This document shows, piece by piece, positions 5,653-43,560 of a stretch of DNA of 43,560 nt. The stretch covers positions 1 to 43,560 of IMG/VR virus record IMGVR_UViG_3300011335_000142; one strand, written 5' to 3'. The DNA is from a virus (lineage: Duplodnaviria > Caudoviricetes). The notes beneath the pieces were generated by a model, which worked only from the letters and a program-made list of their open reading frames with translations, ran no database searches and was not told the origin of the DNA. The translations under genes and the position numbers were made by a program. Numbering within the stretch: the first letter of the stretch is position 1; the number at the start of each line of letters is the position of its first letter.

Positions 5653-7200
5653 ATGGCAACAGCATACCCAGGCGGTTTGCGCAAGCGCGGTGGCTTGCTG
5701 GACTACGAGGACACCATCCAGGCGACACCACGCAATGCATTCTTTGGTGGCGTGGCTGACTTGCTAGGCCAGGCGTACAAGCTGCCGGAGATGCCGCGTC
5801 TGGGTGTACCAGGCTTGGACTTTGTGGCCGCCAACAGGAACCGCCTGATGGACTTGCTTGGCGTCGGTGATGTGCAAAAGACCGCCGAGGCTATGGCATA
5901 CGGCAACAGGCTAGGCACTGGCAGGGGCATGACGTACCAGCCACTGCCCGAGACGATGGGCGCTGCGATGGCGGTTGCGCCGTTTGCTGGTAAAGCTATC
6001 CGCGCCACAGAAGGGTTGCCGGTAGGTGCGAGCATAAAGCTGGTTGATGATGTTGCACCGCAAGCTGAAGCTATGCGCCTTGCCCAGCAACGGGCATTAA
6101 CCGCTGGTCAATCTCCAAATGTGGAAACGAGAATGCTCCAACAAGGGTTTCAGCCTGACTGGTATCACGGGACAACAGGCGACATTACAAATTTCAAAAC
6201 TGGTTTATTGGGTGAAGCTACTGGAGCGCCAAGTGCCAGAAAAGCATTTTTCTTTGCGCGTGATCCACAAAATCCACCAGCGTCAATGATGGTTAAGTCA
6301 ACAGACCAATCATCTATTGATATGTTGAAAAAAATGGGAATGTCTGATGAAGAAATTGCTAGATTAAATGCAGTATCAATGGAAGGTCATGGCGCAGAAA
6401 CAGCATCAGGTTATGCGCAAATTGGTGGATCAAGAGAATACAGAGACGCAATGCGCAAAGCCAATTTAGCGGAAAAACGCAAAGATTGGAATTCTTACGA
6501 GGAGAATATGCAAATTGCTGAAGATTCTGAAATAAAGGGTATGAATGAAAGGCAAACTCTAGTCGCTAAATATGGTGATGCTAGGGATACGATGCTAGAC
6601 TCTATACAAAATTCCATTTTTAGCAAAAAATTGCCGCAAGCAGAAGCAGAAGCATTGGATGCAAAAGTTAAACAATTGATGCCTTATGGTTGGTACAACA
6701 GTTACAGTCAACCACAAATAGATGCTTTAAAAGAAAAATTTATTAATCTTGTCGGGCAGAAATCTGCTGCTCCAGCCTTAAAACAAATAGATAATTTCAA
6801 GTCTATTAGAGCAGAAAGAGAATTGATAGAACGTACTCAGCAAGGTGGTAATGTGATGCCTGTTGCTTTGCGCTATAAAAATCCGTTAGTCTATGATTTC
6901 CAAGGGCAAGGATACAGAGATCAATCGTATGCTGATTTACTTGATCAAGCACTTGCAGGCGGTAATGATGCAGTGATTATGAAAAACACTTATGACCCAG
7001 GCGGTAGTGCTGCCAAACTTATTGATGTTGGGGCTGTGTTTAAGCCTGAGCAAGTTCGTTCACGTTTTGCTGCTTACGACCCATTGAGAGTAACCGCAGC
7101 AACTGCCGCTGCTGCTGGGTTGGCGCCACCCGACTTGCTGGCAGCAGAAACGCCAGAAGAACTAAAACGCCGTCAGATGCGCGGCTTGCTGGCTCCATAA
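5653..7200 (+). CDS. Last gene of ejection module, copy 1: ADP-ribosyltransferase-like (ART-PolyVal-type) domain protein
   Basis: WYHGT (~6160), FFFA, ASGYA, GGNVMPVALRYKNPL, DAVIMKN and AVFKPEQVRSRFAAYDP motifs in the order expected for this ART family. Confidence 0.7.
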   Translation: MATAYPGGLRKRGGLLDYEDTIQATPRNAFFGGVADLLGQAYKLPEMPRLGVPGLDFVAANRNRLMDLLGVGDVQKTAEAMAYGNRLGTGRGMTYQPLPETMGAAMAVAPFAGKAIRATEGLPVGASIKLVDDVAPQAEAMRLAQQRALTAGQSPNVETRMLQQGFQPDWYHGTTGDITNFKTGLLGEATGAPSARKAFFFARDPQNPPASMMVKSTDQSSIDMLKKMGMSDEEIARLNAVSMEGHGAETASGYAQIGGSREYRDAMRKANLAEKRKDWNSYEENMQIAEDSEIKGMNERQTLVAKYGDARDTMLDSIQNSIFSKKLPQAEAEALDAKVKQLMPYGWYNSYSQPQIDALKEKFINLVGQKSAAPALKQIDNFKSIRAERELIERTQQGGNVMPVALRYKNPLVYDFQGQGYRDQSYADLLDQALAGGNDAVIMKNTYDPGGSAAKLIDVGAVFKPEQVRSRFAAYDPLRVTAATAAAAGLAPPDLLAAETPEELKRRQMRGLLAP

Positions 7201-7553
7201 AAAGCCGCCATCAGCGGATCAACCTTGATCTTCCTGCGCTTGCTACGCTCACGCGCCAACCGGAAATCCTTGTCCTCCTGGGACTCACGCTCACGCACCC
7301 GCTGCACGCGCTCATACCGCGTATAGGCCGGTGGCATGGGAGCGTCAGTGCCTATGCCCCAAGCGTAGACCCTGGCAATCCTCCCGCTGGTGCGCGACCA
7401 GCTTGCGACGTAGACCTGGCCGCGCTCATGCATCTTCTTCATGTTGTACTCGGTGGCACGCTCAGACAGGAACACCGTAGCCGCCAGTTCTTTGCGGGTC
7501 ATGGGGCGCTTTCTCAGCGCCTGCTCAATCTGCTTTAGTCGGGTTGGCTGCAC
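7173..7553 (-). CDS. Winged-HTH DNA-binding protein
   Basis: MTRKELAATVFLSERATEYNMKKM HTH-like pattern; GTG start; converges on and overlaps the ART gene. Confidence 0.6.
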   Translation of the reverse strand: MQPTRLKQIEQALRKRPMTRKELAATVFLSERATEYNMKKMHERGQVYVASWSRTSGRIARVYAWGIGTDAPMPPAYTRYERVQRVRERESQEDKDFRLARERSKRRKIKVDPLMAAFYGASKPRI

Positions 7554-7692
7554 GTTCTACTTTCACTCTCTCCATCGTCGAGAAACGATGCCCATTGGCG
7601 CACTCATACCGACGGTAGGTTTCATTGTCGTACTTATGCCTGGTCTCCAGCACGCGGGTCCAGGCTTTGCACTGCGGTTGTGGGCAGATCAC
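7525..7692 (-). CDS. Small NrdR-like zinc-ribbon protein (55 aa, below ORF-track cut-off)
   Basis: Own translation: VICPQPQCKAWTRVLETR...RRYECANGHRFSTME; GTGA overlap with upstream gene. Confidence 0.7.
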   Translation of the reverse strand: MICPQPQCKAWTRVLETRHKYDNETYRRYECANGHRFSTMERVKVERAANPTKAD

Positions 7693-8135
7693 GAGTTGCG
7701 CTCCTTGAGTTTGGCAATGAGAGCAAGAGCGAATTGATACGTTTCACGGGTTTCGTTATACCCAGCCGTACTGTGTATCTCCTCATCTGTCAGCCCTACC
7801 CATGTGCGCTGTGGTGGGGTGGTGTAGAGAGGAACAGAACTTAATCGTGGCTCAAACAAACTAACAATGTCTTGTCCGCGCATATCTTTCCACATCCACG
7901 CCACAGGCTCCTGCGCTGGATGTGCATCAATATGCTCCAAGCATTTACTCAAAGCAAAATACAAGTTGCCATTGTCCACTTGAGAGTCTGGCGTACCGTA
8001 TTCAGCAGCAATTCTTCTGGCCTCTAGCAAATTAACAGGCTCCTGCAACTTGTCCGCAGCCGCTTTACGCTTGGCTTGAAATCCGCGCTGTGGCAATTCA
8101 AGTTTTTCAAACAACGCATCTGTATCATTTTTCAT
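7689..8135 (-). CDS. Hypothetical phage protein (QEPVAW...PLYT...WVGLTDEEI family)
   Basis: Motifs typical of betaproteobacterial phage proteins; ATGA coupling suggests a start at 8135. Confidence 0.6.
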   Translation of the reverse strand: MKNDTDALFEKLELPQRGFQAKRKAAADKLQEPVNLLEARRIAAEYGTPDSQVDNGNLYFALSKCLEHIDAHPAQEPVAWMWKDMRGQDIVSLFEPRLSSVPLYTTPPQRTWVGLTDEEIHSTAGYNETRETYQFALALIAKLKERNS

Positions 8136-8344
8136 AGCATTCCACCTTTCAAAGTTATGCAAGTGCCCTCAATCAGCGTGACCATCTGACCACCTTTGAG
8201 GGACATCTTGCGTAGGGTTTCTTTCTGGTCCTCAATTGCCTGGCGGCACTCGGACTCTCGGCTGAAGTAGCGCATCGACTGAGCGAACTCGCAGTTGCCA
8301 TTCATGCAGACAAACAGGACGGGGATGTAGAGGATGTGGATCAT
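8132..8344 (-). CDS. Small Cys-containing hypothetical protein with hydrophobic N-terminus
   Basis: MIHILYIPVLFVC...; ATGA overlap at 8341-8344. Confidence 0.55.
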   Translation of the reverse strand: MIHILYIPVLFVCMNGNCEFAQSMRYFSRESECRQAIEDQKETLRKMSLKGGQMVTLIEGTCITLKGGML

Positions 8345-8526: not shown

Positions 8527-8586
8527 GATTCGTACTCCGGTGAATCAAACACAAACAGCATGGCGCAGAGCGCCAGCACGACTAGG

Positions 8587-10882: not shown

Positions 10883-10884
10883 TC

Positions 10885-12143: not shown

Positions 12144-12178
12144 CTTTGGGCGCAAGCCCGTTAACTTAGGAAACTGAA

Positions 12179-18278: not shown

Positions 18279-18766
18279 TGGCTACACGCGACGTACCAGC
18301 CAAGTACCAGGCGGCGATGAATCAGATGATGACGCCTGCCAAGGAGGTGGCGAAGTGCCCTATGCCTACCCAGGACGTGGTGCTGAACCTGAAGAATCGG
18401 GCGAAGGCAATCACCACTGCCGCCTACGGTCCGGAGAATCCGAAGCTGCCCAATAAGGTTTACTGGGAGCGTAAGGCCGACACCTGGGACGTGAGCGTGG
18501 AGGATGCTAAGAAGAGCGTCTGCGGTAACTGCGCGGCTTTCAACGTGCAGGACTCGATCAAGCAGTGCATTGCGAAAGGAATTGGAAATGAAGCAGACCC
18601 TTGGGGAACTATACGACTCGCTGACCTCGGCTATTGCGAGATTTTCGATTTCAAATGTGCCGCGAATCGTACTTGTCGGGCTTGGGTCGTGGGTGGCCCA
18701 AATACGGGTGAAAATCAAGACGAGGATGAATCTTTGGATGAAATGAATCAAGCAAATGAAGACTGA
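18278..18766 (+). CDS. Cys-rich hypothetical protein
   Basis: CGNCAAF, GYC, FKCAANRTC.AW motifs; coupled to the upstream gene. Confidence 0.7.
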   Translation: MATRDVPAKYQAAMNQMMTPAKEVAKCPMPTQDVVLNLKNRAKAITTAAYGPENPKLPNKVYWERKADTWDVSVEDAKKSVCGNCAAFNVQDSIKQCIAKGIGNEADPWGTIRLADLGYCEIFDFKCAANRTCRAWVVGGPNTGENQDEDESLDEMNQANED

Positions 18767-19340
18767 AGGTTGCTCAATTTACCAACATAGAAGGGCCGAC
18801 AATGGTCAAATTTTCTATGTTGGTAAAGCATCTAATCCTTACAGGAAATTAAAAACTCAGAACAGAAACAGTCGCTGGCATGAAATAGTTAACGAGGCTG
18901 GTGGTTTTACTGCTGAAGAAATTGTCTCCAATGTTGACGAAGATTTGTCTTTGCTTGCAGAACAGGAATACATAGACAAGTTGAAAAAACTTGGCCTGCC
19001 AATTTGTAATTTAACAACTGGTGGTCAAGGCAGGTCTGGATGGAACCCAAGTGAGGAAACTAGAAAAATCTGGTCTGAGCAAAGGAAAGGCAGAGTGCCT
19101 CACAACAAAGGAAATAAAAAGCCAGTAGTTGTAAAAACACAAGAAGAAAAAGACGAAATAAAAAGAATTCGGGCAGAAAAAGTATCCAAAGCATTTAAGG
19201 GGAAAGAACCGTGGAATAAGGGACTTTCCTATGAATGCTTGGGTAGAAAAGGAAAAACTCCTTGGAACAAAGGCCAAAGAGTTGTCGGTTCTAAAAGATG
19301 GAAAATTGAACAAATGAAATTAGAAAGGGTTAAGTCATGA
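18756..19340 (+). CDS. Free-standing GIY-YIG homing endonuclease with NUMOD-type DNA-binding repeats
   Basis: IYQH...FYVGK, conserved E and N-L-T-x-GG, SEETRKIWS, three P(H/W)NKG repeats; markedly AT-rich. Confidence 0.85.
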   Translation: MKTEGCSIYQHRRADNGQIFYVGKASNPYRKLKTQNRNSRWHEIVNEAGGFTAEEIVSNVDEDLSLLAEQEYIDKLKKLGLPICNLTTGGQGRSGWNPSEETRKIWSEQRKGRVPHNKGNKKPVVVKTQEEKDEIKRIRAEKVSKAFKGKEPWNKGLSYECLGRKGKTPWNKGQRVVGSKRWKIEQMKLERVKS

Positions 19341-19779: not shown

Positions 19780-20468
19780 TAAGCCCAATTGCCATCAGCA
19801 CCGTCCACGGCAAGAACCTGGCGGTGATGCTGGCGTCTATCCGCGAGTACTGCCCAGAGATTCCCGTGTACTTGCGCGGTCCGGCCTCGGTCCTTGACCG
19901 ATTCGACGCCGACGTGAAGATGGTCGGGACACCGAGAAATTTCGGCGAGGACTACAACGACATCATCAACTGCGCACTCAAGGATTTCGACTCTGTCGTG
20001 GTGGCGAATGACGATATTGTCCTGACGCCGTCCAGCTACCGCGTCCTGATGGATGACGTGGAAATCGTCAAAGACATGGGACTGAACCCCGGGTGGATGG
20101 CGTCTAGGTGCGATTGGGCGCGTGCGGTGCAGAATATTCGCTGGAATCCCGAGGGTGAGGCGTTTGATATGTGCCGGTTCACGTCCGAGTCAAAGATTAG
20201 GCAGACAGACGTGATCTCGCCCATATTTGCCTGGATTTGTGCAGATGCCTTTGCCCAATGCCCATTTCCACCCCTAAATTGGTTTTCAGATGACGTTCAG
20301 TGCAGCGACCTGGAGGCACTCGGGTACAAGAATTTCGTGAGCGCGTCCTATGTCCACCACGTCGGGAGCCAGACGGTGGGCGTGAACGCCGAGTCCTTAA
20401 CCAACCAGGCGATGCCCTGGCTTATGAAGCACCGACCCCAATATGTCAAACAGTGGTTTAACTCTTAA
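19776..20468 (+). CDS. GT-A (family 2-like) glycosyltransferase
   Basis: NFGEDYN, VVANDD (DxD-like), WFSDD, YVHHVGSQT. Confidence 0.7.
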   Translation: MISPIAISTVHGKNLAVMLASIREYCPEIPVYLRGPASVLDRFDADVKMVGTPRNFGEDYNDIINCALKDFDSVVVANDDIVLTPSSYRVLMDDVEIVKDMGLNPGWMASRCDWARAVQNIRWNPEGEAFDMCRFTSESKIRQTDVISPIFAWICADAFAQCPFPPLNWFSDDVQCSDLEALGYKNFVSASYVHHVGSQTVGVNAESLTNQAMPWLMKHRPQYVKQWFNS

Positions 20469-20979
20469 CCTGGGTTCCGGCAAGGACTACAGGGATGACT
20501 GCCTCAACGCGGACATCCGGCCAGACGTAGGCGCAGATTGGGTGGTGGACATCTCCGACCTCCACATTGGCGGCATCGTCAAGTGGAAGGACAACTACAT
20601 CCCCATCAAGCGCGGAGGCTTTGAGCGCATCATTGCCTTTGATGTTTTGGAGCATATCCCCAACCTGGTCAAGGCCATGACCAACTGCCGCGATCTGCTG
20701 GCTGATGGCGGTGAGATGCACATCGTCGTTCCCTACGAGTTGAGCCTGGGCGCTTGGCAGGACCCGACGCACGTCCGAGCGTTTAACGAGAATTCCTGGG
20801 TGTACTACTGCGGCTGGCACTGGTACTTGGGATGGAAGGATCACCGGTTTGACGTGACGCACCTGGACTACAAGCTGTCCGAGTATGGGAAAACCCTAGA
20901 ATTGGGACTAGACGAGTTGCTGCGCACGCCTCGGGCGGTGGACAGTATGTACGTCGTACTTAGAAAGATACCCGTATGA
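20443..20979 (+). CDS. Class I SAM-dependent methyltransferase
   Basis: LNLGSG, NADI, DVLEHI, GG.MHIVVP, DPTH. Confidence 0.8.
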   Translation: MSNSGLTLNLGSGKDYRDDCLNADIRPDVGADWVVDISDLHIGGIVKWKDNYIPIKRGGFERIIAFDVLEHIPNLVKAMTNCRDLLADGGEMHIVVPYELSLGAWQDPTHVRAFNENSWVYYCGWHWYLGWKDHRFDVTHLDYKLSEYGKTLELGLDELLRTPRAVDSMYVVLRKIPV

Positions 20980-25313: not shown

Positions 25314-25628
25314 ATGAACAATCAAGTATTTGACGAGAACAAGGAAGCGGGGATTACCCGTTTTTGGCATTTCAACGATGAAACCGGCCAAGCAACGATT
25401 CAGACTCAGCAGGATGTCACAGCAGTCGTTGAAGCAAACAAGGCGGATTTCAATAAGGTAGATGAGCGAGCAAACTGGAAGGGCGAGTGGCATCACGTTG
25501 CCAGCATTCCAGAGGGCGTCTACTACAAACTCAAGGCCGAGGGCAAGCTGGACGATCAGGCGTACATGAAACGCTGGCTCAATGACCCCGACAACAGATT
25601 TTTCAGAACGAGACCTGGACAAGTATGA
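25314..25628 (+). CDS. Hypothetical protein
   Basis: QDV...VASIP...WLNDPDN..FRT..G motif, conserved after capsid genes in such phages. Confidence 0.7.
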   Translation: MNNQVFDENKEAGITRFWHFNDETGQATIQTQQDVTAVVEANKADFNKVDERANWKGEWHHVASIPEGVYYKLKAEGKLDDQAYMKRWLNDPDNRFFRTRPGQV

Positions 25629-26290
25629 ATAACTACATTGCAGTCTGCACCCCAGCCCGTGACATGGTCCACGCCAACTTCACCTATTGCCTGGTGAATA
25701 TGGTCTGCTACCACACGCTGAACACGACAGACGCAGTGTCTCTCAAGATCATGCAGGGTACGCTGATACAGAACCAGCGTGCTGACCTGGCGCTGGATGC
25801 GATGGGCGAGGGATGCACCCATATCCTGTTCATCGACTCCGACATGACGTTCCCGCAGGACATGGTGGAGCGCCTGCTCAAGCATGACCTGGACATTGTG
25901 GCGACCAACTGCGCACGCCGACGCATCCCTACCGGCCCGACTGCTCAGAAGTATGGCCCTGATGGCGAGCGCGAACTGGTCTACACCATGCCAGAGTCCA
26001 CCGGCATCGAGGAAGTCGGCAGCATTGGCATGGGCGTGATGCTCATCAAGCGCAACGTCTTTGAGAAGCTGACAGAGCCTTGGTTCGAAACTCCCTGGCG
26101 CACCGACAAGCGCGGCTACATCGGTGAGGACATCTTCTTCTGCCGTAAGGCGCAGGCGGCAGGGTATAAAATCTACATAGACCACGACGTGAGCAAAGAG
26201 ATCGGCCACATCGGGACGTTTGAATTCAAGCACGACCACACCTGGATGATGCGCGACATCGAGAAGGAAAAGGCAGAGCATGGCACTTAG
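25625..26290 (+). CDS. GT-A (family 2-like) glycosyltransferase
   Basis: LFIDSDM (DxD), GMGVMLIKR, GEDIFFC, IGHIG. Confidence 0.8.
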   Translation: MNNYIAVCTPARDMVHANFTYCLVNMVCYHTLNTTDAVSLKIMQGTLIQNQRADLALDAMGEGCTHILFIDSDMTFPQDMVERLLKHDLDIVATNCARRRIPTGPTAQKYGPDGERELVYTMPESTGIEEVGSIGMGVMLIKRNVFEKLTEPWFETPWRTDKRGYIGEDIFFCRKAQAAGYKIYIDHDVSKEIGHIGTFEFKHDHTWMMRDIEKEKAEHGT

Positions 26291-33510: not shown

Positions 33511-34989
33511 ATGGCACTCATTCCTCTCAAGATTCCCCCAGGCGTTTACCGCAACGGCACAGAGTACCAGGCAATGGGACGCTGGTACGACTCCAACCTG
33601 GTGCGCTGGTTTGAAAATACCCTGCGACCCATTGGCGGGTGGCGGGTGAAGTCCACGTCTGCCATGACGGGAATCTGCCGAGGCATCATCACCTGGCGAG
33701 ACAACAGCGCGGCACGCTGGGCGGCGATGGGTACTCAGTCCAAGCTGTACGCGATGAATGCACTCGGGGTAGTCAAGGACATCACTCCTACTGGATTCAC
33801 CACTGGCTCTGCTGACGCCACCGGCACAACCGGCTACGGGTACTGGACATATGGCAGCCTGTCTTATGGCACAGCGCGACCTGACACCGGATCAGTACCG
33901 GCCACCACCTGGAGCCTGGACACCTGGGGCGAGTACCTGGTGGCTTGCAGCAGCACAGACGGCAAGCTGTACGAGTGGCAGCTAGGTTTCACGACTCCCA
34001 CTATCGCGGCTGTCATCACCAACGCACCGACAAGCTGCGCGGCGCTGATGACCACCAGCGAGCGCATCATCTTTGCCCTGGGCGCATCGGGTAATCCGCG
34101 CCTGGTGAAGTGGTGCGATCAGGAGAACAACACGACCTGGACGGCGGCAGCCAACAACCAGGCGGGTGACTTTGAACTGGCAACGCCAGGGTCTCTAAGG
34201 TGCGGCAAGCGCGTGCGAGGCGTCAACATCCTATTTACTGACACAGACGCGCACGTCGCCAGTTACATCGGCCTGCCATTCGTCTACAGTTTTGAGAAGG
34301 TGGGCAGCGGGTGTGGAGTCATCTCCGCGCAGGCGGTGGCGGCCATCGACACGTCCGCGATGTGGATGAGTCAGTCGGGATTCTGGTCATACGACGGGTA
34401 CGTCAAGCCTATGCAGTGCGATGTCGGGGACTACGTCTTCAACAATATCAACTATGCCCAGGCGTCCAAGGTCTACGCCGTCCACAACTCTACCTATGGC
34501 GAGGTGACCTGGTTCTACCCGTCACTGTCCTCCACTGAGAATGACAGCTATGTCACCTACAACTACCGTGAGGGGCATTGGGCTATCGGGATGATGGCTC
34601 GCACAGCCGGAACAGATCGAGGCGTATTCGCCAACCCGCTGTTTGTCAGCACCGACGGGTACATCTACGACCACGAGGTCGGCTACACCTACGACTCGGT
34701 GGCTCCCTACGCGCAGTCCGGTCCGATTGAACTCGGGAACGGCGACAACGTGATGGCCGTCAGGTCAGTGATACCAGACGAGCAGACGCTGGGCGAGGTC
34801 CTGATCTCATTCACGGCCAGGATGTACCCAACATCGGCAGAGACAAGCTACGGCCCGTTCAGCGCGAAAGCCCCAACCGATACCCGATTCTCAGGACGGT
34901 CAGTCAAGATGAAGGTCACCGGAAACGTGCTGGACGATTGGCGGGTCGGCGTGATGCGGCTGGAGGCTACATCGGCAGGGAAACGGTAA
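33511..34989 (+). CDS. Tail tubular/nozzle (stabilisation) protein
   Basis: MALIPLKIPPG start, WSLDTWGEYL, WCDQE, beta-propeller-like, R..GR...K...WRVG..RL C-terminus; precedes ejection module. Confidence 0.75.
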   Translation: MALIPLKIPPGVYRNGTEYQAMGRWYDSNLVRWFENTLRPIGGWRVKSTSAMTGICRGIITWRDNSAARWAAMGTQSKLYAMNALGVVKDITPTGFTTGSADATGTTGYGYWTYGSLSYGTARPDTGSVPATTWSLDTWGEYLVACSSTDGKLYEWQLGFTTPTIAAVITNAPTSCAALMTTSERIIFALGASGNPRLVKWCDQENNTTWTAAANNQAGDFELATPGSLRCGKRVRGVNILFTDTDAHVASYIGLPFVYSFEKVGSGCGVISAQAVAAIDTSAMWMSQSGFWSYDGYVKPMQCDVGDYVFNNINYAQASKVYAVHNSTYGEVTWFYPSLSSTENDSYVTYNYREGHWAIGMMARTAGTDRGVFANPLFVSTDGYIYDHEVGYTYDSVAPYAQSGPIELGNGDNVMAVRSVIPDEQTLGEVLISFTARMYPTSAETSYGPFSAKAPTDTRFSGRSVKMKVTGNVLDDWRVGVMRLEATSAGKR

Positions 34990-35348
34990 TGGAGGATTTC
35001 TGGCGGTTGGCACAACACATCGAAGCCGCCTTAGAATACTCAGCAGGAACCCACACTCTTCAAGATGTTGCGCAGGGTGTAGAGGAGAACAGATTCCAGC
35101 TATGGCCTGGAGTCAAAAGCGCAGTCATCACAGAGATCATTGTCTATCCGCGACTCAAGAATCTGCATTATTTTCTTGCTGGCGGCGACCTAGATGAACT
35201 CAAGCGGATGCGACCACACATCGAGGCTTGGGGTAAGCAGATTGGTTGCACGCGAGTTACCTTGGCTGGCCGTAAGGGTTGGGCAAGGACGTTTTTAGCA
35301 GACGAGGGATATGCCCCGAAGTGGCATATTCTGAGCAAGGAGTTGTAA
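34989..35348 (+). CDS. Copy 2 of the 17..376 gene
   Basis: Differs from copy 1 at 2 aa. Confidence 0.75.
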   Translation: MEDFWRLAQHIEAALEYSAGTHTLQDVAQGVEENRFQLWPGVKSAVITEIIVYPRLKNLHYFLAGGDLDELKRMRPHIEAWGKQIGCTRVTLAGRKGWARTFLADEGYAPKWHILSKEL

Positions 35349-35350
35349 CA

Positions 35351-36676
35351 ATGGACGCATGGGATTTCAGACAGCAAGCCTTAATGGGTGGCGCTTATGC
35401 GCCCATATTGGGTAACTTCCCATCTCCTACGCGACCGCAAAGTGCAGTTGATTTAGGTCCTGATACGTCATCTACTTGGAGTTCGTCTTACCCGACAACA
35501 ACGGCAGCACCAGCGGCATCTGCTGCTACAAGCTACCGCTACAGCCCACGCACTTCTACTGGTAGACGCAACCGTTACGCGGAGATCATGTCCCAGTATG
35601 AGCAGTCTCAGCCGTTTTCGTTCTTTGGTTACCCAGAAAGCTACTCAGGCGGGTATGACGTTGCGCAACCCCAGGCAGCAGCACCCGTCACTCGCTACGA
35701 GGAGATCATGGCGCAGCCAGCTATGGGCGGTGGTGGTGGACGTGGTATGCCAGCAGATGAAGGTGGAACATTTACTGAACCCACCAGCGAGCAGGCGTAC
35801 AACGTGTCTACTCTTGGAAGAAATTTAAGGTATGTGTCTCCACTGTTTGGAGGATTAGCCTCCATGTATGGCAATTACTTGGCAAGCCAAGTGAATCCCA
35901 ATTACAGCAATGAAGGCAGAAACTATCCTGCGCCAACTGGTGGGTTTTTGAGTTCAGAAGCAGCGCCATCAGCATCAACTGGCACATTGAGTTTTGCTCC
36001 TCCAACTGAGGCGCAATATGGAGCATATCTTGCTCAACAGCAAGCAGATGCCGCAGGGCGTGAATATGGTACTGGCGCTGTACCTCCAACCATGACCCAG
36101 AATCAGTTTGCTGCGCAATATGCTGCATACGGTGCTGGACAGCAACCAGCAGCATCAACTGGTGGATTTACGCCATACAGCGGGACACAGAATGCTGTGC
36201 GTTCATATGACGCAATGGGTAGAGAAATATCACCAAATCAGGCTGCTTTGAGTGGGGCTAGTGTGGTTGTGTCTGATGCAAGATCAGCAGCAGAGGCCCA
36301 AGCTAGAGCAGATGCCGCTGCACAGGATGCACGAGTAGCGGCGTTTGATGCATCAAGAGAATCCACAAGAAGTGGCGGTGGCGGCGGCATGGGAGGCGAT
36401 GGTGGCGGTGGTGTAGCTACCGGAGGCAACAACGGTGACGCATCAGGCGGTGGTGATCGCGGAACACGCGGTGGCTTTGCGCAAGGCGGTCACGTCTCCA
36501 TGATGCACTTGCAAGGCCCGAACCCAATGGGTCCTGATGACGGCTACGCTGCGCTCAAGGATGGCGAGTTTGTCATCAACGACAAGGCAGTCAAAAAATA
36601 CGGTATCGAGTTGATGCAGGCCATTAACTCGGGCAAGATTTCAAAGGGCAAGCTGCGCGGCTTGCTCGAAATGTAA
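35351..36676 (+). CDS. Ejection protein B, copy 2 (441 aa)
   Basis: Shares RNRYAEIMSQ..QSQPFSFFG and the C-terminal ~60 aa with copy 1; the rest is unrelated. Confidence 0.7.
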   Translation: MDAWDFRQQALMGGAYAPILGNFPSPTRPQSAVDLGPDTSSTWSSSYPTTTAAPAASAATSYRYSPRTSTGRRNRYAEIMSQYEQSQPFSFFGYPESYSGGYDVAQPQAAAPVTRYEEIMAQPAMGGGGGRGMPADEGGTFTEPTSEQAYNVSTLGRNLRYVSPLFGGLASMYGNYLASQVNPNYSNEGRNYPAPTGGFLSSEAAPSASTGTLSFAPPTEAQYGAYLAQQQADAAGREYGTGAVPPTMTQNQFAAQYAAYGAGQQPAASTGGFTPYSGTQNAVRSYDAMGREISPNQAALSGASVVVSDARSAAEAQARADAAAQDARVAAFDASRESTRSGGGGGMGGDGGGGVATGGNNGDASGGGDRGTRGGFAQGGHVSMMHLQGPNPMGPDDGYAALKDGEFVINDKAVKKYGIELMQAINSGKISKGKLRGLLEM

Positions 36677-36686
36677 GGAGAACGAT

Positions 36687-37433
36687 ATGTCGAAAGGCGG
36701 CGGCAGCACTACAGCAACCACAGCAATTGACCCTGATCTGAAGGCGGCTTATCTCCGCAATGTCGGGCAGGCTCAGAGCGTTGCGGGTGCATTACCTGTT
36801 CGGCAGTTTGCAGGGTTCAATCCGCTGTACACGGCTGGCGAGCAGCAAGTCACGAATGAGGCTCTGACACCATTTACTGGCGAGTCCATCCAGCAGTTTA
36901 TGAACCCCTATGAGACTGACGTTATCCAGCGTGCATTGGCTGATGTCGGTGGCGCATTGGATACCCAGCGTCTCAAGGACCGGCAGGCGGCTACCGCTGC
37001 ACGCGCCTTTGGTGGTTCACGCCAAGGCGTGCAGGAGTCACTCACAAATGCCGCAGCCATCAAGCAGGCGGCTGATACCGCAGCCCAGATGCGTGCCGCT
37101 GGTTACGGGCAGGCGGCTAACCTGGCTCAGTACGCCAAGGGTGCGAACATATCCGGCGGCCAGGCGGTGATGGGACTGGGCGGTGCGCGTCAGCAGTTGG
37201 AGCAGGCTCAGATGGATGCGTTGCGCAACATCGGCCTGGAGAAGCTGCAGATTGCCACTGGTGGACTCAGCACCAGCTTGCCAAACCTCGGCATGACGCA
37301 ATCTCAGCCGTACTACAACAACCCGTTGTCAGGCGCTTTGGGTGGTGCATTGGCAGGACAGAGATTAGGCGGTGCAAACTATGGTGGAACCGGCGCGCTG
37401 CTAGGTGGTTTGCTTGGATACTTTGGTGGATAA
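36687..37433 (+). CDS. Ejection protein C, copy 2
   Basis: Same length as copy 1, about 18 substitutions by manual count. Confidence 0.8.
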   Translation: MSKGGGSTTATTAIDPDLKAAYLRNVGQAQSVAGALPVRQFAGFNPLYTAGEQQVTNEALTPFTGESIQQFMNPYETDVIQRALADVGGALDTQRLKDRQAATAARAFGGSRQGVQESLTNAAAIKQAADTAAQMRAAGYGQAANLAQYAKGANISGGQAVMGLGGARQQLEQAQMDALRNIGLEKLQIATGGLSTSLPNLGMTQSQPYYNNPLSGALGGALAGQRLGGANYGGTGALLGGLLGYFGG

Positions 37434-37443
37434 GGGGAACAAG

Positions 37444-39273
37444 ATGGCAACACTGTCAGATTTTTATTATGGTGACCCATACGCATTTGATCCATTAAGC
37501 CAGTATTACCTTGGTAGTGGGGTTAGAGATACAAGGCTCCTCCAGAACTATCGGCCAACGACTAGATTTATGTCGCGTGGGAAAGAACCTACGAGTTTAT
37601 ATTCCTCCAATTTGGGAACCTATGTTCCTACCCAAATGGGAGACTTCACTCCTAGCGCTGGACTGATGGGCGAGATGCAGCCGCTATCGAATCAACCGGA
37701 AGACGTATTCCAAACTCCAAACCAGCGCGGGTTTCAACCTGGCGGCTCAATGATGCCGACTGCGCAAAATGTTGTCGTTGAGGACGTGATGCCGCAGGAC
37801 AACCCCAACTATCGTCCTGATGCAGAAGCTGCACCACGCCGCACACTCGGACTGCTGGGTGATATGTTTGGCGGTGCATCCGCGCTTGACGAGTACATGA
37901 CGCCAGAGCAGAGAGCGCAGCTACAGAACCAGGGCGTAATGGCTGCGGCCATGCAACTGCTTGCGTCATCAGGCCCGAGCCGCACGCCCGTGGGACTCGG
38001 CCAGGCGCTTGGTGAGGCGTACGGTGCTGGACAGAAGGGCTACACGGCAGCACAGCAGAATCTGCTCCAGAGCATGACGATGAAGCAGAAGATGGATGAG
38101 GCTAAAGCCACAAAGGGTATGCAAGCCACAGTGTCTACATTCCTGGCGCAGAAAGCACCGGAAGGCGTTGACGCCAAAGAGTTCAAGGCGCAGCAGTACA
38201 TGAGGCTCGCAGATGTCTACGCTGCAAGCAACCCAGATCAGGCCAGCAAGTTCTTTGACATGGCGCAGAAGCTGATGCCTGTACGCGCAAAGGTCAGCGG
38301 TCCTCCCATTGAGGTAACTGGACCTGATGGCAAGCCAATTCTTATTCAGCAAAATGAATACGGCGACTACACCACGCTGCAAGGTTTTGGACCTAAGCGT
38401 AAGGTTGTGCTGCAAAACGTAGATGGCGTTATGACGGCAATTAACGAGTCTGAACTTCAAGGTGGCGAGAAGTTTGGCACTGGAATCAGTGCAGTCGAAC
38501 AGGCACGCATTGACAATGAGAAGAAACGTATTGAGATGGAAGGCACTCGGTTGGGGTATGACCGTGAGCGTATTGACCTTGATAAGAAACGCTTTGAGGA
38601 AGTCGAAAAGGCGAAGCTGGGAATGGAGCGTGAACAGCTTGGCATGGCCCGTCAACGTCTGAATTTGAGCCTACAAGAGTTCCAGCGTGGATCGTATGAC
38701 CGCGTGCAGAACGAGGATGGCGTGTTCTACGTCCCGAAAGTGCCTGGCCTGCCCGTGATTCAAATTGCTGGCCCTGGTGGCGTACCGCTGAAGGGTGCTG
38801 CTGGTGGCAAGCCCACAGAGGCAGAGCAAAACGCTGCCGGTTTCGCGCAGCGTATGGAGCGCGTAACCGGAATCATCGACGCACTGCCTGTAGCGGCAGC
38901 GCCAGGAATGGGTTCTGCCATTGCAGGCGCTATCCCGCTTGTTGGCGGCGTGGCACAGCGTGGAGTTCAAAGCGAACAGACTCAGCAATTCCAGCAGGCG
39001 GCTAACGATTGGATACGCGCAAAGTTGCGTAAGGAATCTGGCGCTGCGATTGGCAAGGATGAGATGGATGCAGAATTTAGAACGTACTTCCCGCAAGTTG
39101 GTGACGGTCCAGCAGTCATTGCTCAGAAGGCAGCGGCTCGGCGTGTTGCTACTCAGGCTATGAAGACGGCGGCAGGGAAGTCATATGTGCCATATGTTCC
39201 TGAAGTACCAGCGCCAGCAGCCGGTGGCGCTCCGGTGCTGACGTGGGACCCAGTAGCAAGAAAATTTAAGTGA
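37444..39273 (+). CDS. Ejection protein D, copy 2
   Basis: Shares central PRRTLGLLG...MAQKLMP block and final PAAGGAPVLTWDPVA.KFK; carries an LRKESGAAIG..E motif in place of the copy-1 C-domain. Confidence 0.75.
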   Translation: MATLSDFYYGDPYAFDPLSQYYLGSGVRDTRLLQNYRPTTRFMSRGKEPTSLYSSNLGTYVPTQMGDFTPSAGLMGEMQPLSNQPEDVFQTPNQRGFQPGGSMMPTAQNVVVEDVMPQDNPNYRPDAEAAPRRTLGLLGDMFGGASALDEYMTPEQRAQLQNQGVMAAAMQLLASSGPSRTPVGLGQALGEAYGAGQKGYTAAQQNLLQSMTMKQKMDEAKATKGMQATVSTFLAQKAPEGVDAKEFKAQQYMRLADVYAASNPDQASKFFDMAQKLMPVRAKVSGPPIEVTGPDGKPILIQQNEYGDYTTLQGFGPKRKVVLQNVDGVMTAINESELQGGEKFGTGISAVEQARIDNEKKRIEMEGTRLGYDRERIDLDKKRFEEVEKAKLGMEREQLGMARQRLNLSLQEFQRGSYDRVQNEDGVFYVPKVPGLPVIQIAGPGGVPLKGAAGGKPTEAEQNAAGFAQRMERVTGIIDALPVAAAPGMGSAIAGAIPLVGGVAQRGVQSEQTQQFQQAANDWIRAKLRKESGAAIGKDEMDAEFRTYFPQVGDGPAVIAQKAAARRVATQAMKTAAGKSYVPYVPEVPAPAAGGAPVLTWDPVARKFK

Positions 39274-39280
39274 GTACATC

Positions 39281-41191
39281 ATGCCTCAACTAGTCAACAT
39301 TGAAGGCGTCGGGGTAGTCTCTTTCCCTGACGGTATGACCCAGGAGGAGATGGCCGCCGCGCTGTCTCAGCTACCTGGTCAGCGCAGCGTAGCGCAGGAC
39401 CTGGTGCGCCAGGTAGGACTCACCTCCCGCGCAGCATTACCGGCCATGACGGGCGCTGCAATGGGTGGCATGGTAGGTGGCCCTCCAGGTGCTGCCATTG
39501 GCGCTTTGGGCGTCGGCCTGGGGACGATGGCAGTTGACCCTCTGGTGAGCCTGTTCAACCGCGCCACGGGCTACAACGTCCCCACCGCGTCGCAGGGGTT
39601 TGAGAACATTGCCACCCAGATGGGACTGCCAGCGCCTGAGACCCCAACAGAGCGCGTGATGAGCGACATTGTTCGCGCCGGTACTTCCACTGTCGGATCG
39701 GCGCGTGGCGCTGGCGTAGTCGCGCAGAACCTGGCTAACGCCAACCTGATGCGCGGCCAGGCCGCGGGTATCCCGTCCGAGGTGTTCAACCTACTCTCGC
39801 GCTACCCAGCGCAGCAGGTGGCCGCTGCTGGTGCGGCAGGCGCTGCCGGTGGCACTCTGCGCGAGTCAGGAGCCAGCCCAGGCGCTCAGATGGGCGGTGC
39901 GATGCTGGCGGGTATGGTCGCACCTGGTAGCCCTAAGCTGCCGTTCACTCAGCGTGCGCTGGCAGCACCGGCCACCGTAGTGCAACCGTTCACCCAAGCT
40001 GGCCGCGAGGTGATTGTGGGTAACGTGCTAAACCGGCTGGCGACCAACCCAGAGGCCGCACAAGCGCGTTTGGCTGCCGCTGCACCCCTAGTACCAGGCG
40101 TGCGTCCTACAACTGCTGGCGCGGCATTTGACCCTGGCCTGGCGGCGTCTGAGACGGCTATAAGGGCGCTGGATCAGTCTGGCGCTTTCCCATCTCAAAT
40201 TAGCGGTAACCAGCAGGCTCTGCTGGACGCATACCGCCGACTGTCTGGTGGACCAGGCTCAGTCCCCTACGCCGAGACAAAGCGTGCGGGGATCACCGGC
40301 CCTATGCGTGAGCAGGCGTTTGAGGGACGCGCACCTGTCACGGCAGACGCTATCGAGGCGCAGATTCAGTCAACCATGAGTGACCCCATGAAGCAGCGCG
40401 GCGTGGTGCTGGACGCCATGCAAGAGGTGCGCAGGCTCATCAACGCACGCAAGGGTCCAGATGGCACTCTTGACCCTGCCGCGCTGTACAGCGTGCGCAA
40501 GGACATTGCCGATATGATGTCCGGACGTCTGCAAGGCGAGAAGGCCAACCTACGCCTAGCGCGTGGTGAGTTAGCAGACCTGCTTCCCGTCATCGACAAC
40601 ACGATTGACTCTGGCGCTCCAGGGTTCAAGGCGTACATGGAGAAGTACGCGAAGATGTCGGGTCCTATCGACCAGATGCGCCTGCTGCAAGACATCGAGC
40701 GTCGCGTCACCACCGGCCAGCCTAACGTGATGACGGGTGAGCCGGTGCTGGCCGCTGGCGCGTTGCGTCGGCAACTAGCTACTCGCGCAGAAGAGATCGG
40801 CGCAGAGTTGTCACCAGCAGCGCAGCGCAGGCTGGACGCCATCATCACTGAGATCAATCGCGGGATGGCGGCCACAGCGCCAGGTGTAAAGGTTCCAGGC
40901 TCCGACACGTTCCGCAATATGTCGATGGGCAACATGATTGGAAAAATCTTCAGCGAGTCGATGGCAAGCAACACGACGCTGCGCACCATGACCCGTCCGC
41001 TGGACTTCCTGTACAAGCTGCCTGATGACAAGATTCAGCAGTTGCTGGTGGAGGCTATGCTTGACCCGCAGACGGCGGCTGTGCTGATGAGCAGGGCCAA
41101 CATGATGAAGGTGGAGCCTCTCGCTAAGTCACTGCGCGAGAAGGCAATTCGTATGGGCATGGGAAGCGCAATTGGCGCGGCACAGGAGTAA
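39281..41191 (+). CDS. Ejection protein E, copy 2
   Basis: Near-identical ends and diverged middle relative to 3732..5648. Confidence 0.78.
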   Translation: MPQLVNIEGVGVVSFPDGMTQEEMAAALSQLPGQRSVAQDLVRQVGLTSRAALPAMTGAAMGGMVGGPPGAAIGALGVGLGTMAVDPLVSLFNRATGYNVPTASQGFENIATQMGLPAPETPTERVMSDIVRAGTSTVGSARGAGVVAQNLANANLMRGQAAGIPSEVFNLLSRYPAQQVAAAGAAGAAGGTLRESGASPGAQMGGAMLAGMVAPGSPKLPFTQRALAAPATVVQPFTQAGREVIVGNVLNRLATNPEAAQARLAAAAPLVPGVRPTTAGAAFDPGLAASETAIRALDQSGAFPSQISGNQQALLDAYRRLSGGPGSVPYAETKRAGITGPMREQAFEGRAPVTADAIEAQIQSTMSDPMKQRGVVLDAMQEVRRLINARKGPDGTLDPAALYSVRKDIADMMSGRLQGEKANLRLARGELADLLPVIDNTIDSGAPGFKAYMEKYAKMSGPIDQMRLLQDIERRVTTGQPNVMTGEPVLAAGALRRQLATRAEEIGAELSPAAQRRLDAIITEINRGMAATAPGVKVPGSDTFRNMSMGNMIGKIFSESMASNTTLRTMTRPLDFLYKLPDDKIQQLLVEAMLDPQTAAVLMSRANMMKVEPLAKSLREKAIRMGMGSAIGAAQE

Positions 41192-41195
41192 GACG

Positions 41196-43560
41196 ATGGC
41201 AACAGCATACCCAGGCGGTCTGCGCAAGCGCGGTGGCTTGCTGGACGAGTTTATGGCTCCAGACTACAGCTACCTTGCACGCAGGGCAGAGTTAACGCCC
41301 AAGCAGCGCGAGTACGCCGCGAATGCACCGATAGATTTTCTGCGGGGTACGTTTGCTGGTCTGCTTGGAGCACCGGCTGATGTTGCGAACATCCCGCAGT
41401 CGCCAATGCCAATGGAGCAATTCGGTGAGTACAGCTACGCGCCAGCGCAAAAGATTCCATACGGGTCTGAATATTTCCTAAAGAATCTTCCATTGGCTCC
41501 GGCAGAAGATAACCCGCTGGGCAGAGTTGCCGGCCAGATTGGATCATTCGCCCCAATGGTTCCGGTGCAAGCTGCACGCATGGCCGGTAAGGGTGCGATG
41601 GCCGCGGGACGTGCTGGTGAGCGCCTAGCGGAGCGCGTTGTGCCGCAAGTTATGGAACGTGGTGGCCTGCTGAGTGAGATGGTTGGTGCTATGGGTCAGG
41701 GGACTACGTCAGGAATGGTCGCAAAGAGTAGCCCGGCTCTTGATTTAACTGGCGCTTTACGGCCTGGCAAAGCACCAGTAAGAGGCGAGACAAGCAAAGA
41801 ACTTGTACGTCAACAGAAGAAATTGTTATCTGATGATGAAAAAGAAATTCTAGATACCCTCAAGCAAAAGTACCCTGATTTTGCAAGTGCATCTAAATTT
41901 ATGACAGGGCAAGAAGTCCAGAAGTTAATTCGCTCTGAATCAGCGGTGAAAGAAGTAAGCCAATTGCTGTCAATACTTCCTAACGCCAAGGAAATGTCTT
42001 CAATGGCTAAAGCTGGGCAACCGAAGCAGGGTTGGTACAGGGCGTCTACGCAAGCAATTATCGATGTATTTGGTGCTGATGATGCGCCAAGGTTTGCGTC
42101 ATTGCTTGCAGCACTGTCACCGCAAACAAGCGTAGAGATGAATTTACTCAATACGCTGAACACCTGGAAAAATTGGACTGCTGCTGGCCGCCCAACTGAT
42201 CCTAGGGCCATCAAGGAAATTATGGGCCGCAGTGTGAGTGGCACTAAGGGCGAAGAGTCAATTTTGGGTGCATGGGAAAATAACGCATTCAGATCTCTCT
42301 CAGCGCCAGATCCTACAAAAGTCACTTTGTCCGGTCCTAAAGTAGATTCGTTCTACAAAAATCTTGCTGATGATGTCTACAAGGTAACAAACGACGCATG
42401 GATGGCGAATGCTCTTGGAGTAAATCAAAATCTGTTCAGCGGATCTCCTACAGCATTGCAGCTTGCAAAGGGTGATCCTGGTCTGACTCCTGGATACATT
42501 GCCACCAACGCCAGACTTAGGCAAGGCGCTCAACAAGCTGGGATGTTCCCATCGGAAGGCCAGGAAACAATTTGGTCGCTTGCGATGCCCTTGATGGAGG
42601 GCCAGACATCAATGGGATTGCCAGCCAGGGCAATACTGGATCAGGGTAAGTTGACGCCAGATATTATTCGAGGAACTCCTGATTTCTCTACTTTGCTCAA
42701 CCAAGGTAACTATCAGGATATTTTGCGTCGCGCTGGGTATGAGGAACAATTGGCGGCATTGAAACCATATGAGTGGAGTCCATCAAATGTCCAACTATCC
42801 ATGTCTGAACAACGTGATATTGATTCACTTGCAAAAAGACTTGAAGAATTGCAAGGCTTTAGGCAAATGGAGTCCCGCGGGAAAGTAATTAGCCTGCCTC
42901 GAAATCCGCAAAATCTACCCGACAGGGCGATTGGTGCTGAAACCTACGAAATGATACCTTTCCTAGGTAGCGGCCACCTTGAAGAATTGATAAATCAACC
43001 GGCTGGATCACGCGCAAACTTTTCATCTCGCGCTGCTTCAGCATTCCAAGACGTCCAAGGACGAGACATTTTGTCCAGGTCTTTGCTGGATGAAAACGTA
43101 CTGAAAACAAGAGGTATGCAAGGCGCATACCGGCCACCAGGTGGAGTTCCATTTGTAGGGCCAGCATCGGAAACTGGATTACGCGCTCCGACATTAGCAA
43201 AAAATCCAATTGAAACCAATACTGGTTTTGCCAATCGTTTTGAAGTGCCGGTGACATACGCCAGCCCAGTGTCAAAGGTTGGTCCGGCTTTGAATTACCC
43301 ACAAATACCTAGAAAAACTCAAGAGAAACTTGGCGCTGTAGCTGCTACCAGGGGGCTACTTACGGCCCAGGGTGGATCGCCTTACAACGTGCAAGTGCCA
43401 TATGCCAAGGGTGAAAGTATGTTCTTCCCATTGGAGAAGAAAGTCGGCGAAGATGAAATTAGGTATGCCTACAATTTGGCCGGAGATGAAATACCTTTAG
43501 CAGATTATGGAACTGGTGTTGCGGGGTTAAATTTTGGTAAGAGATTGCCTGCTGCTGATA
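41196..43560 (+). CDS. Last gene of ejection module, copy 2 (3'-partial, at least 788 aa): HhH-GPD DNA glycosylase-like domain protein
   Basis: Own translation is open to the window end; GWY (42030), LLAALSPQT (~42102), LSGPKV (~42327), VTNDAW (42384), QETIW (42561). Confidence 0.7.
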   Translation, partial: MATAYPGGLRKRGGLLDEFMAPDYSYLARRAELTPKQREYAANAPIDFLRGTFAGLLGAPADVANIPQSPMPMEQFGEYSYAPAQKIPYGSEYFLKNLPLAPAEDNPLGRVAGQIGSFAPMVPVQAARMAGKGAMAAGRAGERLAERVVPQVMERGGLLSEMVGAMGQGTTSGMVAKSSPALDLTGALRPGKAPVRGETSKELVRQQKKLLSDDEKEILDTLKQKYPDFASASKFMTGQEVQKLIRSESAVKEVSQLLSILPNAKEMSSMAKAGQPKQGWYRASTQAIIDVFGADDAPRFASLLAALSPQTSVEMNLLNTLNTWKNWTAAGRPTDPRAIKEIMGRSVSGTKGEESILGAWENNAFRSLSAPDPTKVTLSGPKVDSFYKNLADDVYKVTNDAWMANALGVNQNLFSGSPTALQLAKGDPGLTPGYIATNARLRQGAQQAGMFPSEGQETIWSLAMPLMEGQTSMGLPARAILDQGKLTPDIIRGTPDFSTLLNQGNYQDILRRAGYEEQLAALKPYEWSPSNVQLSMSEQRDIDSLAKRLEELQGFRQMESRGKVISLPRNPQNLPDRAIGAETYEMIPFLGSGHLEELINQPAGSRANFSSRAASAFQDVQGRDILSRSLLDENVLKTRGMQGAYRPPGGVPFVGPASETGLRAPTLAKNPIETNTGFANRFEVPVTYASPVSKVGPALNYPQIPRKTQEKLGAVAATRGLLTAQGGSPYNVQVPYAKGESMFFPLEKKVGEDEIRYAYNLAGDEIPLADYGTGVAGLNFGKRLPAAD

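Follow-up and report, generated by a model that had tools for sequence, protein, structure and literature searches.

Gene content of the locus

The DNA studied here is the whole of IMG/VR record IMGVR_UViG_3300011335_000142, a 43,560-nt phage sequence that is classed as linear and is referred to below as the window. It encodes an Sf6-type small terminase, a large terminase, an SU10-type portal (E 2e-199), a capsid protein, an adaptor, a scaffold, tail fibre genes, a holin and an M15 peptidase, together with a primase/helicase-like protein, a PD-(D/E)XK nuclease, a Holliday-junction resolvase and a PAPS-reductase-like protein. Our subject is a gene at the end of the structural operon that starts 4 nt past the stop codon of an upstream gene, E, which is the last large gene of a presumed ejection module (proteins B-E). 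This position, called the slot, occurs twice in the window, and its two proteins (W1 for allele 1 and W2 for allele 2) share a 17-residue leader that is followed by an N-terminal adaptor region and then by a payload. We consider it reasonably probable that the slot holds an accessory effector gene that is rapidly exchanged, with a product that is probably packed into the virion and enters the cell along with the DNA, and that the window presents two alleles of this gene. Viral loci that encode relatives carry L-numbers where they must be told apart. The principal features are as follows.

3732-5648, plus strand: E, allele 1, final large gene of the presumed ejection module, an open reading frame (ORF) of 638 aa
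39281-41191, plus strand: E, allele 2, an ORF of 636 aa with 79% amino acid identity to allele 1
5491-5703, plus strand: junction block comprising the 3' end of E, a 4-nt spacer and the leader, 97-98% identical in the two alleles by sliding identity
5653-5703, plus strand: 17-codon leader, copy 1
41196-41246, plus strand: 17-codon leader, copy 2
5653-7200, plus strand: slot gene allele 1, complete, 515 aa, comprising the leader, a TPRN-type adaptor, a split ART-PolyVal domain and a tail ending RGLLAP
41196-43559, plus strand: slot gene allele 2, cut by the end of the window, at least 788 aa (L006: 912 aa)

Both slot genes open with MATAYPGGLRKRGGLLD, in which 50 of 51 nucleotides are identical and the single change is synonymous (TTG/CTG, codon 9), much as a first-pass annotation of this DNA had described; judged from the alignment, this match is not due to chance. 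The switch to lower GC after the leader that it reported is also borne out, with values of 0.43 and 0.47 for the payload parts against 0.544 for the window. The adaptor parts have a GC content of 0.58-0.60. The leader closes a block of ~210 nt that is 97-98% identical between the alleles, and the preceding 900 nt of E are 50-80% identical in the same sliding comparison. Homology of the two regions ends exactly at 5703/41246, after codon 17, and past the leader the identity is ~0.5-0.57 per 60-nt bin. E matched no Pfam and no PHROG family, and its C-terminal 250 aa have a mean column identity of 77% across 29 sequences.

The first 5.7 kb of the window is a diverged homologue of positions 34973-41246 (83-98% nucleotide identity in five blocks). 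Related contigs or genomes are 35.7-37.2 kb in length and have one slot each, and one circular genome of 36,472 nt has a single copy. Contigs from two public runs that hold allele 1 also cover the allele 2 payload, in one piece of 1,473 nt with 68 differences and another of 2,509 nt with 34; in these runs the region is strongly fragmented, with contig branching at the allele boundaries. Because each relative has one slot and both alleles occur in the same runs, the two copies are most likely alleles of a single locus, not two genes in one genome. We infer that the record represents ~1.2 genome lengths of a ~35-kb phage and that the assembler joined two co-occurring strains. No RNA data are listed among the public runs that hold the sequence.

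Several further observations concern the two alleles. The record ends (1-5703 versus 34973-41246) appear as diverged alleles of the entire module, with protein B measuring 320 versus 442 aa and protein D 538 versus 609 aa. E is a mosaic between the alleles, being 92-98% identical at its 5' end, 50-80% identical in the middle and 97-98% identical over the last 160 nt. A contig from a public run departs from the window sequence at 41223, inside the leader (about codon 9), and continues in unrelated AT-rich sequence, which hints at further variants that break within the leader.

Exchange of slot genes among relatives

Homologues of E were found at 47 viral loci. E runs off the contig in four of these. 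Of the remaining 43, three (L007, L016 and L048) have no gene in the slot, and the other 40 have one in the same orientation that starts at or near the E stop codon. Clustering of the slot proteins of at least 300 aa, with six shorter or truncated rows left out, yielded 12 payload classes and six N-terminal classes in 18 combinations, and five payload classes were each paired with at least two of the N-terminal classes. A 40-row tree built from the C-terminus of E shows 23 changes of payload class and 14 of N-terminal class. Identical or near-identical E proteins are accompanied by differing payloads or by none, as in the sets L015/L016/L017 and L038/L044/W2. The payload of W1 recurs at 59% identity behind MADNLQATPRN..., and that of W2 at 76% identity behind MATQGFINPNIQRQG.... 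Pfam families among the payloads of the 26 slot proteins scanned are GNAT, PBECR5, ART-PolyVal and DUF7178.

A search with a degenerate DNA pattern for the 17 residues found the exact leader at seven viral loci; the leader of L044 is one Gly short. Behind the leader lie five payload classes, namely the ART-PolyVal type, an unknown 551-aa type, an L015-like type, the DUF7178 type and a class termed class 1, which occurs there in two forms that are 40% identical. The first-pass annotation had proposed an exchangeable cassette and had suggested looking at the genes downstream of E homologues. This comparison bears out that the slot is polymorphic, with many unrelated C-termini in place of one or two fixed ones: 12 payload classes after E homologues, and five behind an identical leader. 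Judged from these comparisons, the slot is a true replacement hot spot at which payloads, adaptors and whole genes are swapped among close relatives.

Two arrangements at the slot were recorded in addition. In the empty slots of L007 (7914-7950), L016 and L048, converging minus-strand genes follow directly after the E stop codon. In L050 (MW202879; 10676-12579) and L039 (7695-9511), E and the slot gene are separated by an additional small gene; one of these small genes is annotated as a high-potential iron-sulfur protein and has no Pfam match.

Payload 1 as a split ART-PolyVal domain

The payload of allele 1 comprises three segments.

6160-6270, plus strand: ART-PolyVal N-piece, residues 170-206, with invariant H172 and aromatic F200/F201 (Pfam, hhalign)
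6271-6846, plus strand: mostly helical insert splitting the domain, residues 207-398 (W1 model; Pfam matches of relatives in two pieces)
6847-7089, plus strand: ART-PolyVal C-piece, residues 399-479, with invariant D458 (hhalign; Pfam in relatives)

The first-pass annotation had read this payload as an ADP-ribosyltransferase (ART), a reading that held and could be narrowed to the ART-PolyVal type with an insert. W1 matches ART-PolyVal (PF18760) at residues 170-205 with an E-value of 2.7e-5, over profile positions 9-38 only. Its more than 370 environmental homologues are conserved in the payload region (about residues 136-497), and those listed are 50-75% identical to W1 by best local alignment. 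ART-PolyVal was matched by 53 of 57 aligned relatives (Pfam, E <= 0.01). Among the ten relatives for which a range is listed, the match is to the N-piece in six and to the C-piece in three, as partial profile ranges (positions 4-39/66 or 47-133); the tenth relative, P0117, is listed with a match to an additional ART domain that is complete. When the W1 family was aligned by hhalign with 11 compact ART-PolyVal domains, the C-piece (399-479) scored 98.4% (E 7e-15) and the N-piece (170-206) 86.6% (E 4e-6). In the W1 model, the insert contains helices at residues 261-394 in a block with a pLDDT of about 66-91.

The H-Y-D pattern of ARTs has its His in strand 1, its Tyr in strand 2 and its Asp in strand 5, as set out in the survey of polyvalent proteins (PMC5512222). 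H172 and D458 of W1 are invariant and align with the His and acidic positions of ART-PolyVal. The Tyr position is an invariant Phe in the W1 family (F200/F201), and the compact domains have Y, W or F there. D448 was also considered as the acidic residue and was dropped, as the profile alignment points to D458.

The two-piece Pfam and hhalign matches, together with the invariant H172 and D458, indicate that in payload 1 an ART-PolyVal ADP-ribosyltransferase is interrupted by a mostly helical insert of ~190 aa. Weighing against this assignment are the Pfam score of W1 itself, which is under the gathering cut-off for PF18760 (25.4 versus 31.2 bits), and the poor AlphaFold model of the ART core (pLDDT 56.7). 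A tblastn search of the W1 payload against 50,697 phage records returned a single weak match in a Helicobacter prophage. A sequence-profile search of the Protein Data Bank (PDB) with the W1 family gave nothing meaningful.

Payload 2 and the fold of DUF7178

Allele 2 carries the following features.

41196-41735, plus strand: N-terminal ~180 aa (leader and PDYS-type adaptor), modelled with low confidence
41979-42857, plus strand: HhH-GPD-like helical domain with DUF7178, W2 residues about 262-554 (Pfam, VIA-align)
42339-42395, plus strand: invariant Lys K382 to Asp D400 in LSGPKVDSF...VTNDAW (invariant columns, spacing as in Nth)
42900-43559, plus strand: start of the C-terminal alpha/beta domain, corresponding to L006 residues 560-890 (high-pLDDT model)

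W2 matches DUF7178 (PF23802) at residues 270-460 with an E-value of 5e-9. Its family has more than 410 homologues, and among the 120 listed, DUF7178 is present in all but three, preceded by dozens of differing N-termini. Relatives of 1000-1580 aa combine the DUF7178 module with ART-PolyVal (7 of the 120 listed) or with SLT, Hydrolase_2 (cell-wall hydrolase), LPD23 or PcfJ-like domains in one protein. DUF7178 is not mentioned in the literature searched.

The slot protein of L006, which is 95% identical to W2 over 788 residues, was used for structural comparison. Its AlphaFold model has a pLDDT of 82.8 and a pTM of 0.77 and is confident over residues 175-890, with residues 1-172 mostly below 50. 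When this model was compared with 48,161 chains by VIA-align, HhH-GPD enzymes ranked top for residues about 240-545. The best match was 3n0u_A (Tm1821 OGG; Z 9.9, rmsd 3.9, 184 of 209 residues aligned), and others were 8a5g (EndoIII-3; Z 8.5), 7ugk (the queuine salvage enzyme DUF2419; Z 8.2), 1xqp (AGOG; Z 7.9) and 2abk (Z 7.2). NTHL1, MIG, EndoIII, MagIII, MutY, Mag1, OGG1, ROS1, AlkA and MBD4 were also among the rows. The C-terminal alpha/beta domain gave weak and mixed structural matches (Z about 6).

The HhH-GPD signature consists of a hairpin Gly followed by a catalytic Asp, with a Lys in the bifunctional enzymes. In L006, an invariant Lys and Asp lie at G371-P-K373 and D391 (K382 and D400 in W2), 18 residues apart, which is the same spacing as that of K120 and D138 in E. 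coli Nth (K-12 record).

The HhH-GPD superfamily accounts for about 22 of the 50 listed VIA-align rows, with Z from 9.9 to about 6, values below the level of 13 under which a match of a helical model can mean a common arrangement. This limit weighs against a glycosylase-like reading, as do several negative results. No HhH-GPD family was matched by sequence (Pfam, E <= 0.01), and hhalign against E. coli Nth gave 0.5%; Foldseek of the L006 model against the PDB returned spurious whole-chain matches to RND pumps, none with E <= 0.001. A tblastn search with the W2 payload found no match in the 50,697 phage records. A PDB profile search with the W2 family likewise gave no HhH-GPD protein and nothing meaningful. 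In BFVD, Foldseek found polyvalent-type phage proteins (down to E 1e-19), and a Protein Atlas search found DUF7178 clusters only. The argument for HhH-GPD rests on the consistency of the superfamily among the structural matches, not on any single Z. The HhH-GPD-like character that the first-pass annotation had assigned to copy 2 therefore has support at the level of fold and of the Lys/Asp motif, and none at the family level, where Pfam and hhalign are negative. At the fold and motif level, the comparisons support a model of payload 2 as an HhH-GPD DNA-glycosylase-like fold plus a further alpha/beta domain.

Compared with HhH-GPD glycosylases (EndoIII/Nth, OGG, AGOG, MagIII and MutY) and with DUF2419, payload 2 appears alike in fold, and its Lys/Asp spacing is that of E. 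coli Nth. It differs from the glycosylases in that W2 has no sequence or profile similarity to them and in that the domain lies inside a ~730-aa module with extra helical and alpha/beta domains.

The N-terminal adaptors and the leader

The adaptor of allele 1 maps as follows.

5710-5997, plus strand: TPRN-type N-terminal adaptor, about residues 20-115 (alignment and profile search)

It belongs to a conserved region of ~110 aa with the pattern TPRN..GLL.DA..DP.RTQQMQG..GLLES..MAYGEPLT..VAP. A profile search with this region found 582 representative clusters at E <= 1e-3 and 399 at E <= 1e-10, and in 148 of the 150 proteins listed its start falls among residues 1-47. The 131 usable proteins among the best 150 fall into 31 payload clusters under a reciprocal-coverage rule; single linkage without the coverage rule chains 116 of the 131 together. 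When 115 TPRN-bearing proteins were scanned with Pfam, the matches were to ART-PolyVal (26, of which 11 were above the cut-off), LPD23 (11), GNAT (6), ParB_N (1) and metallopeptidase-like domains (3, below the cut-off), and 70 proteins had no match.

The leader has a much narrower distribution. Leader-bearing rows are confined to one nine-row clade of the E tree (support 100), and the leader occurs in two of the 240 payload homologues listed. Only two continuations follow it, YEDTIQATPRN... (the TPRN adaptor) or EFMAPDYSYL..., and close relatives of allele 2 start with MGLLDEF..., without the first 13 residues. In the alignment, the leader is an extension ahead of the TPRN region. These patterns suggest that the leader is a clade-specific N-terminal add-on that belongs to the conserved left flank, and that it is probably not a delivery signal. 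Because the adaptor is far wider-spread than the leader, the adaptor and not the leader is, on this sequence evidence, the constant part relevant to function. The first-pass view of the leader as a constant trafficking N-terminus is accordingly not supported, as the leader belongs to one clade, is found in 2/240 listed homologues and precedes two adaptor types that are themselves wider-spread.

G-L-L motifs in slot and module proteins

Both ends of the slot proteins are strongly enriched in a G-L-L tripeptide: 30 of the 33 unique proteins have it within their first 60 aa (shuffle mean 1.27), and 13 of the 27 complete proteins within their last 20 aa (shuffle mean 0.36). In 29 other window proteins, the corresponding counts are 1 (N-terminal) and 0 (C-terminal). 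The codons for G-L-L differ between lineages, so it is the peptide and not the DNA that is conserved. Protein C of the module ends GGLLG.FG in about 13 of 23 loci examined, and protein B ends RGLLEM. W2-family proteins in other phages end (K/R)(K/R)xGGLAxLR, which resembles RKRGGLL of the leader. It might serve the module as a signal for docking or processing. The G-L-L counts are not phylogenetically independent.

In the window, the proteins ending at 1339, 2097 and 7200 carry a C-terminal G-L-L. Protein B (377-1339 and 35348-36676) also has a C-terminal segment of ~50 aa (...DGEFVINDKAVKKYGIELMQAINSG...) that matches the C-termini of tape-measure PHROGs (E about 1e-6), and this tape-measure-like end occurs in a podovirus-type genome.

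Flanks of the cassette

The sequences that bracket the variable part are listed here.

7193-7691, no strand assigned: conserved right flank of the slot, 83-92% identical in relatives
7205-7217, minus strand: terminator-like hairpin and T-run of the converging minus-strand unit, a consensus match only, conserved in the flank
5692-5701, plus strand: GGCTTGCTGG, left copy of a 10-nt direct repeat, coding GLL of the leader
7183-7192, plus strand: GGCTTGCTGG, right copy, coding GLL of the tail RGLLAP

The right flank follows the differing payload genes of L006, L038, L004, L044, L053, L054 and L056, and in L007 it directly follows the E stop codon. The 10-mer GGCTTGCTGG occurs in the window only at 5692, 7183 and 41235, which is at the leader ends and at the coding end of allele 1, and the variable part of allele 1 is therefore bracketed by a direct repeat. 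This arrangement suggests that cassettes may be exchanged by homologous recombination at the conserved flanks, and a role of the leader as part of the recombination anchor, which the first-pass annotation had offered as an option, would fit.

About 150-170 nt separate the payload stop codon from the right flank in L006 (10560-10725) and L038 (8276-8430). These spacers contain an apparent small minus-strand ORF with GGAG ahead of it.

Delivery of slot proteins and alternative explanations

Virion delivery of the slot proteins is suggested by the gene context, the coupling to E, the domain repertoire, the fusions of DUF7178 to lysozyme-type domains and the shared G-L-L motifs. The slot protein consists of a poorly structured adaptor (~100-170 aa, of several types and rich in G-L-L), a payload and often a G-L-L tail. 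A link between the payload and the ejection proteins would be made by the adaptor and not by the leader of 17 residues, and the left flank (including the leader) and the right flank would supply homology for cassette exchange. After injection, the ART would modify host proteins and the glycosylase-like enzyme would act on DNA or nucleotides, and the purpose of such injected enzymes would be takeover or counter-defence.

Several results count against this model of a virion-loaded effector. By tblastn, neither payload is present in a cultured phage. The reading of B-E as ejection proteins rests on P22-like annotation synteny in relatives and on weak family matches. No E-payload fusion was found by phmmer of proteins B, C, D, E and a stabilisation-like protein against 240 homologues. 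A search for longer E-containing proteins also gave no such fusion, which is weak evidence. Among papers on ejection protein, ADP-ribosyltransferase, virion and phage, no published account of such a locus was found by title or abstract.

The slot could instead hold an ordinary late-expressed accessory ('moron') gene whose product is not packaged and acts inside the phage-producing cell or once that cell has lysed, for instance as a toxin or in superinfection exclusion, with the shared N-termini serving another purpose or reflecting linkage. Convergent operon junctions are typical places for accessory genes, and the slot is at such a junction, between the late operon and a minus-strand unit that converges on it and has a terminator-like site. 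The absence of the gene at three loci, a payload GC that is foreign to the genome and the failure to find a fusion to E would all suit such a gene. We nevertheless regard this explanation as unlikely, given that the slot gene starts immediately after E, that the adaptor is N-terminal in nearly all of the proteins listed, that the domain repertoire is that of polyvalent proteins and that G-L-L motifs are common to slot proteins and other module proteins. A core structural ejection protein, whose variable C-terminus fits the channel to host envelopes and carries no enzyme cargo, would likewise lie inside the module, would have a poorly structured N-terminus as many ejection proteins do, and could account for the fusion of DUF7178 to cell-wall hydrolase domains in other phages. 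This explanation is very improbable in our view, since close relatives have empty slots, among them L016, whose E C-terminus is identical to those of the payload-bearing L015 and L017, and since the payloads belong to cytoplasm-type enzyme families (ART, GNAT, RNase-like PBECR5 and ParB_N). The empty slots already hint that natural phages lacking the gene are viable.

A different question is whether the leader itself might be a packaging signal like the T4 capsid targeting sequence, a constant address for any enzyme. T4 uses N-terminal propeptides of 10-19 residues in this way, according to the account in PMC9026906, and the leader precedes five payload classes without change and is better conserved (50/51 nt) than most of E. 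Its confinement to a single clade and its near absence from the payload homologues listed nonetheless make this quite doubtful, as does the presence of the same payloads, at 59% and 76% identity, behind other N-termini. Moreover, close relatives beginning with MGLLDEF... lack its first 13 residues, there is no prohead protease among the annotated window genes, and one of the two adaptors always follows the leader, so that it is never fused directly to an enzyme.

We also entertain, tentatively, a broader form of the virion-loaded effector model, in which the G-L-L adaptors are the portable address of an unrecognised and very large effector-loading system and the DUF7178 cargo is an injected HhH-GPD-type glycosylase. 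If so, almost any enzyme could be loaded onto the ejection apparatus of these podoviruses, and during the opening seconds of infection the DUF7178 glycosylase, among the commonest cargoes of the system, would target host DNA, modified bases or nucleotide signals.

Other genes of the window

Three ORFs elsewhere in the window were noted. An ORF at 18756-19340, located between the large terminase gene and the portal region, weakly matches NUMOD3, has a GIY-YIG-looking N-terminus and is probably a homing endonuclease. A methyltransferase-like ORF (20443-20979) just before the portal and a glycosyltransferase-like ORF (25625-26290) between the capsid and adaptor genes each have a weak Pfam match and an unusual place.

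Significance and comparison with known systems

Proteins injected with phage DNA act before any phage gene expression and are therefore prime candidates for counter-defence and host takeover. To our knowledge, few injected phage proteins are known outside T4, P1, N4 and T7. A slot with natural swaps amounts to a ready-made comparative experiment, and the adaptor family marks hundreds of candidate cargo proteins, most of them without a known family. If the adaptor is sufficient for loading, it might offer a protein-delivery tool with podoviruses. An HhH-GPD-like fold assignment is also offered here for DUF7178, a domain that is widespread in phages.

Polyvalent proteins (PMC5512222) are the closest known concept, with MuF toxins and the T4 capsid targeting sequences as functional parallels. 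MuF toxins, as described by Jamet et al. 2017 (PMC5576092), have a constant virion-associated N-terminus and variable C-terminal toxic or enzymatic domains, and phage delivery has been proposed for them. In contrast, the slot lies after the ejection genes and not in the packaging module, the phages here are from freshwater and are not Firmicutes prophages, and no immunity gene was identified. No Pfam match to the MuF domain was obtained in either allele (E <= 0.01) or in the 26 slot proteins scanned.

The T4 internal proteins and Alt resemble the slot proteins in that a short N-terminal peptide is common to unrelated head-delivered proteins, including an ART, and the set of T4 internal proteins varies between related phages in a manner comparable to the slot, both as reported in PMC9026906. 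In T4, the prohead protease gp21 cleaves the signal, whose target is the scaffold core, whereas among the genes here no protease was identified, the leader belongs to one clade and a long adaptor always comes next. In addition, Alt is an ART of the R-S-E clade, not of the H-Y-D clade, in the classification of PMC5512222.

ART-PolyVal, PBECR5, LPD23, ParB, GNAT and metallopeptidase-like domains belong to the repertoire of polyvalent proteins, which are predicted to be injected (Iyer et al. 2017, PMC5512222). In the same source, polyvalent proteins, which occur in phages and conjugative elements, have 2-15 disparate domains, whereas the slot proteins have mostly one recognisable payload. By the criterion of at least two disparate domains, W1 has one recognisable enzymatic domain, and W2 has the glycosylase-like domain plus an alpha/beta domain. 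The slot proteins also differ in having dedicated N-terminal adaptors and a fixed slot after the ejection genes. The terms 'glycosylase' and 'helix-hairpin-helix' are absent from the main text of PMC5512222, and its supplements may list the domain as an LPD. The likenesses to polyvalent proteins are nevertheless close: the DUF7178 module sits in proteins of 1000-1580 aa with ART-PolyVal, and the systems share the same domain repertoire, a place among virion genes and extensive mosaicism, as the polyvalent proteins are portrayed in PMC5512222.

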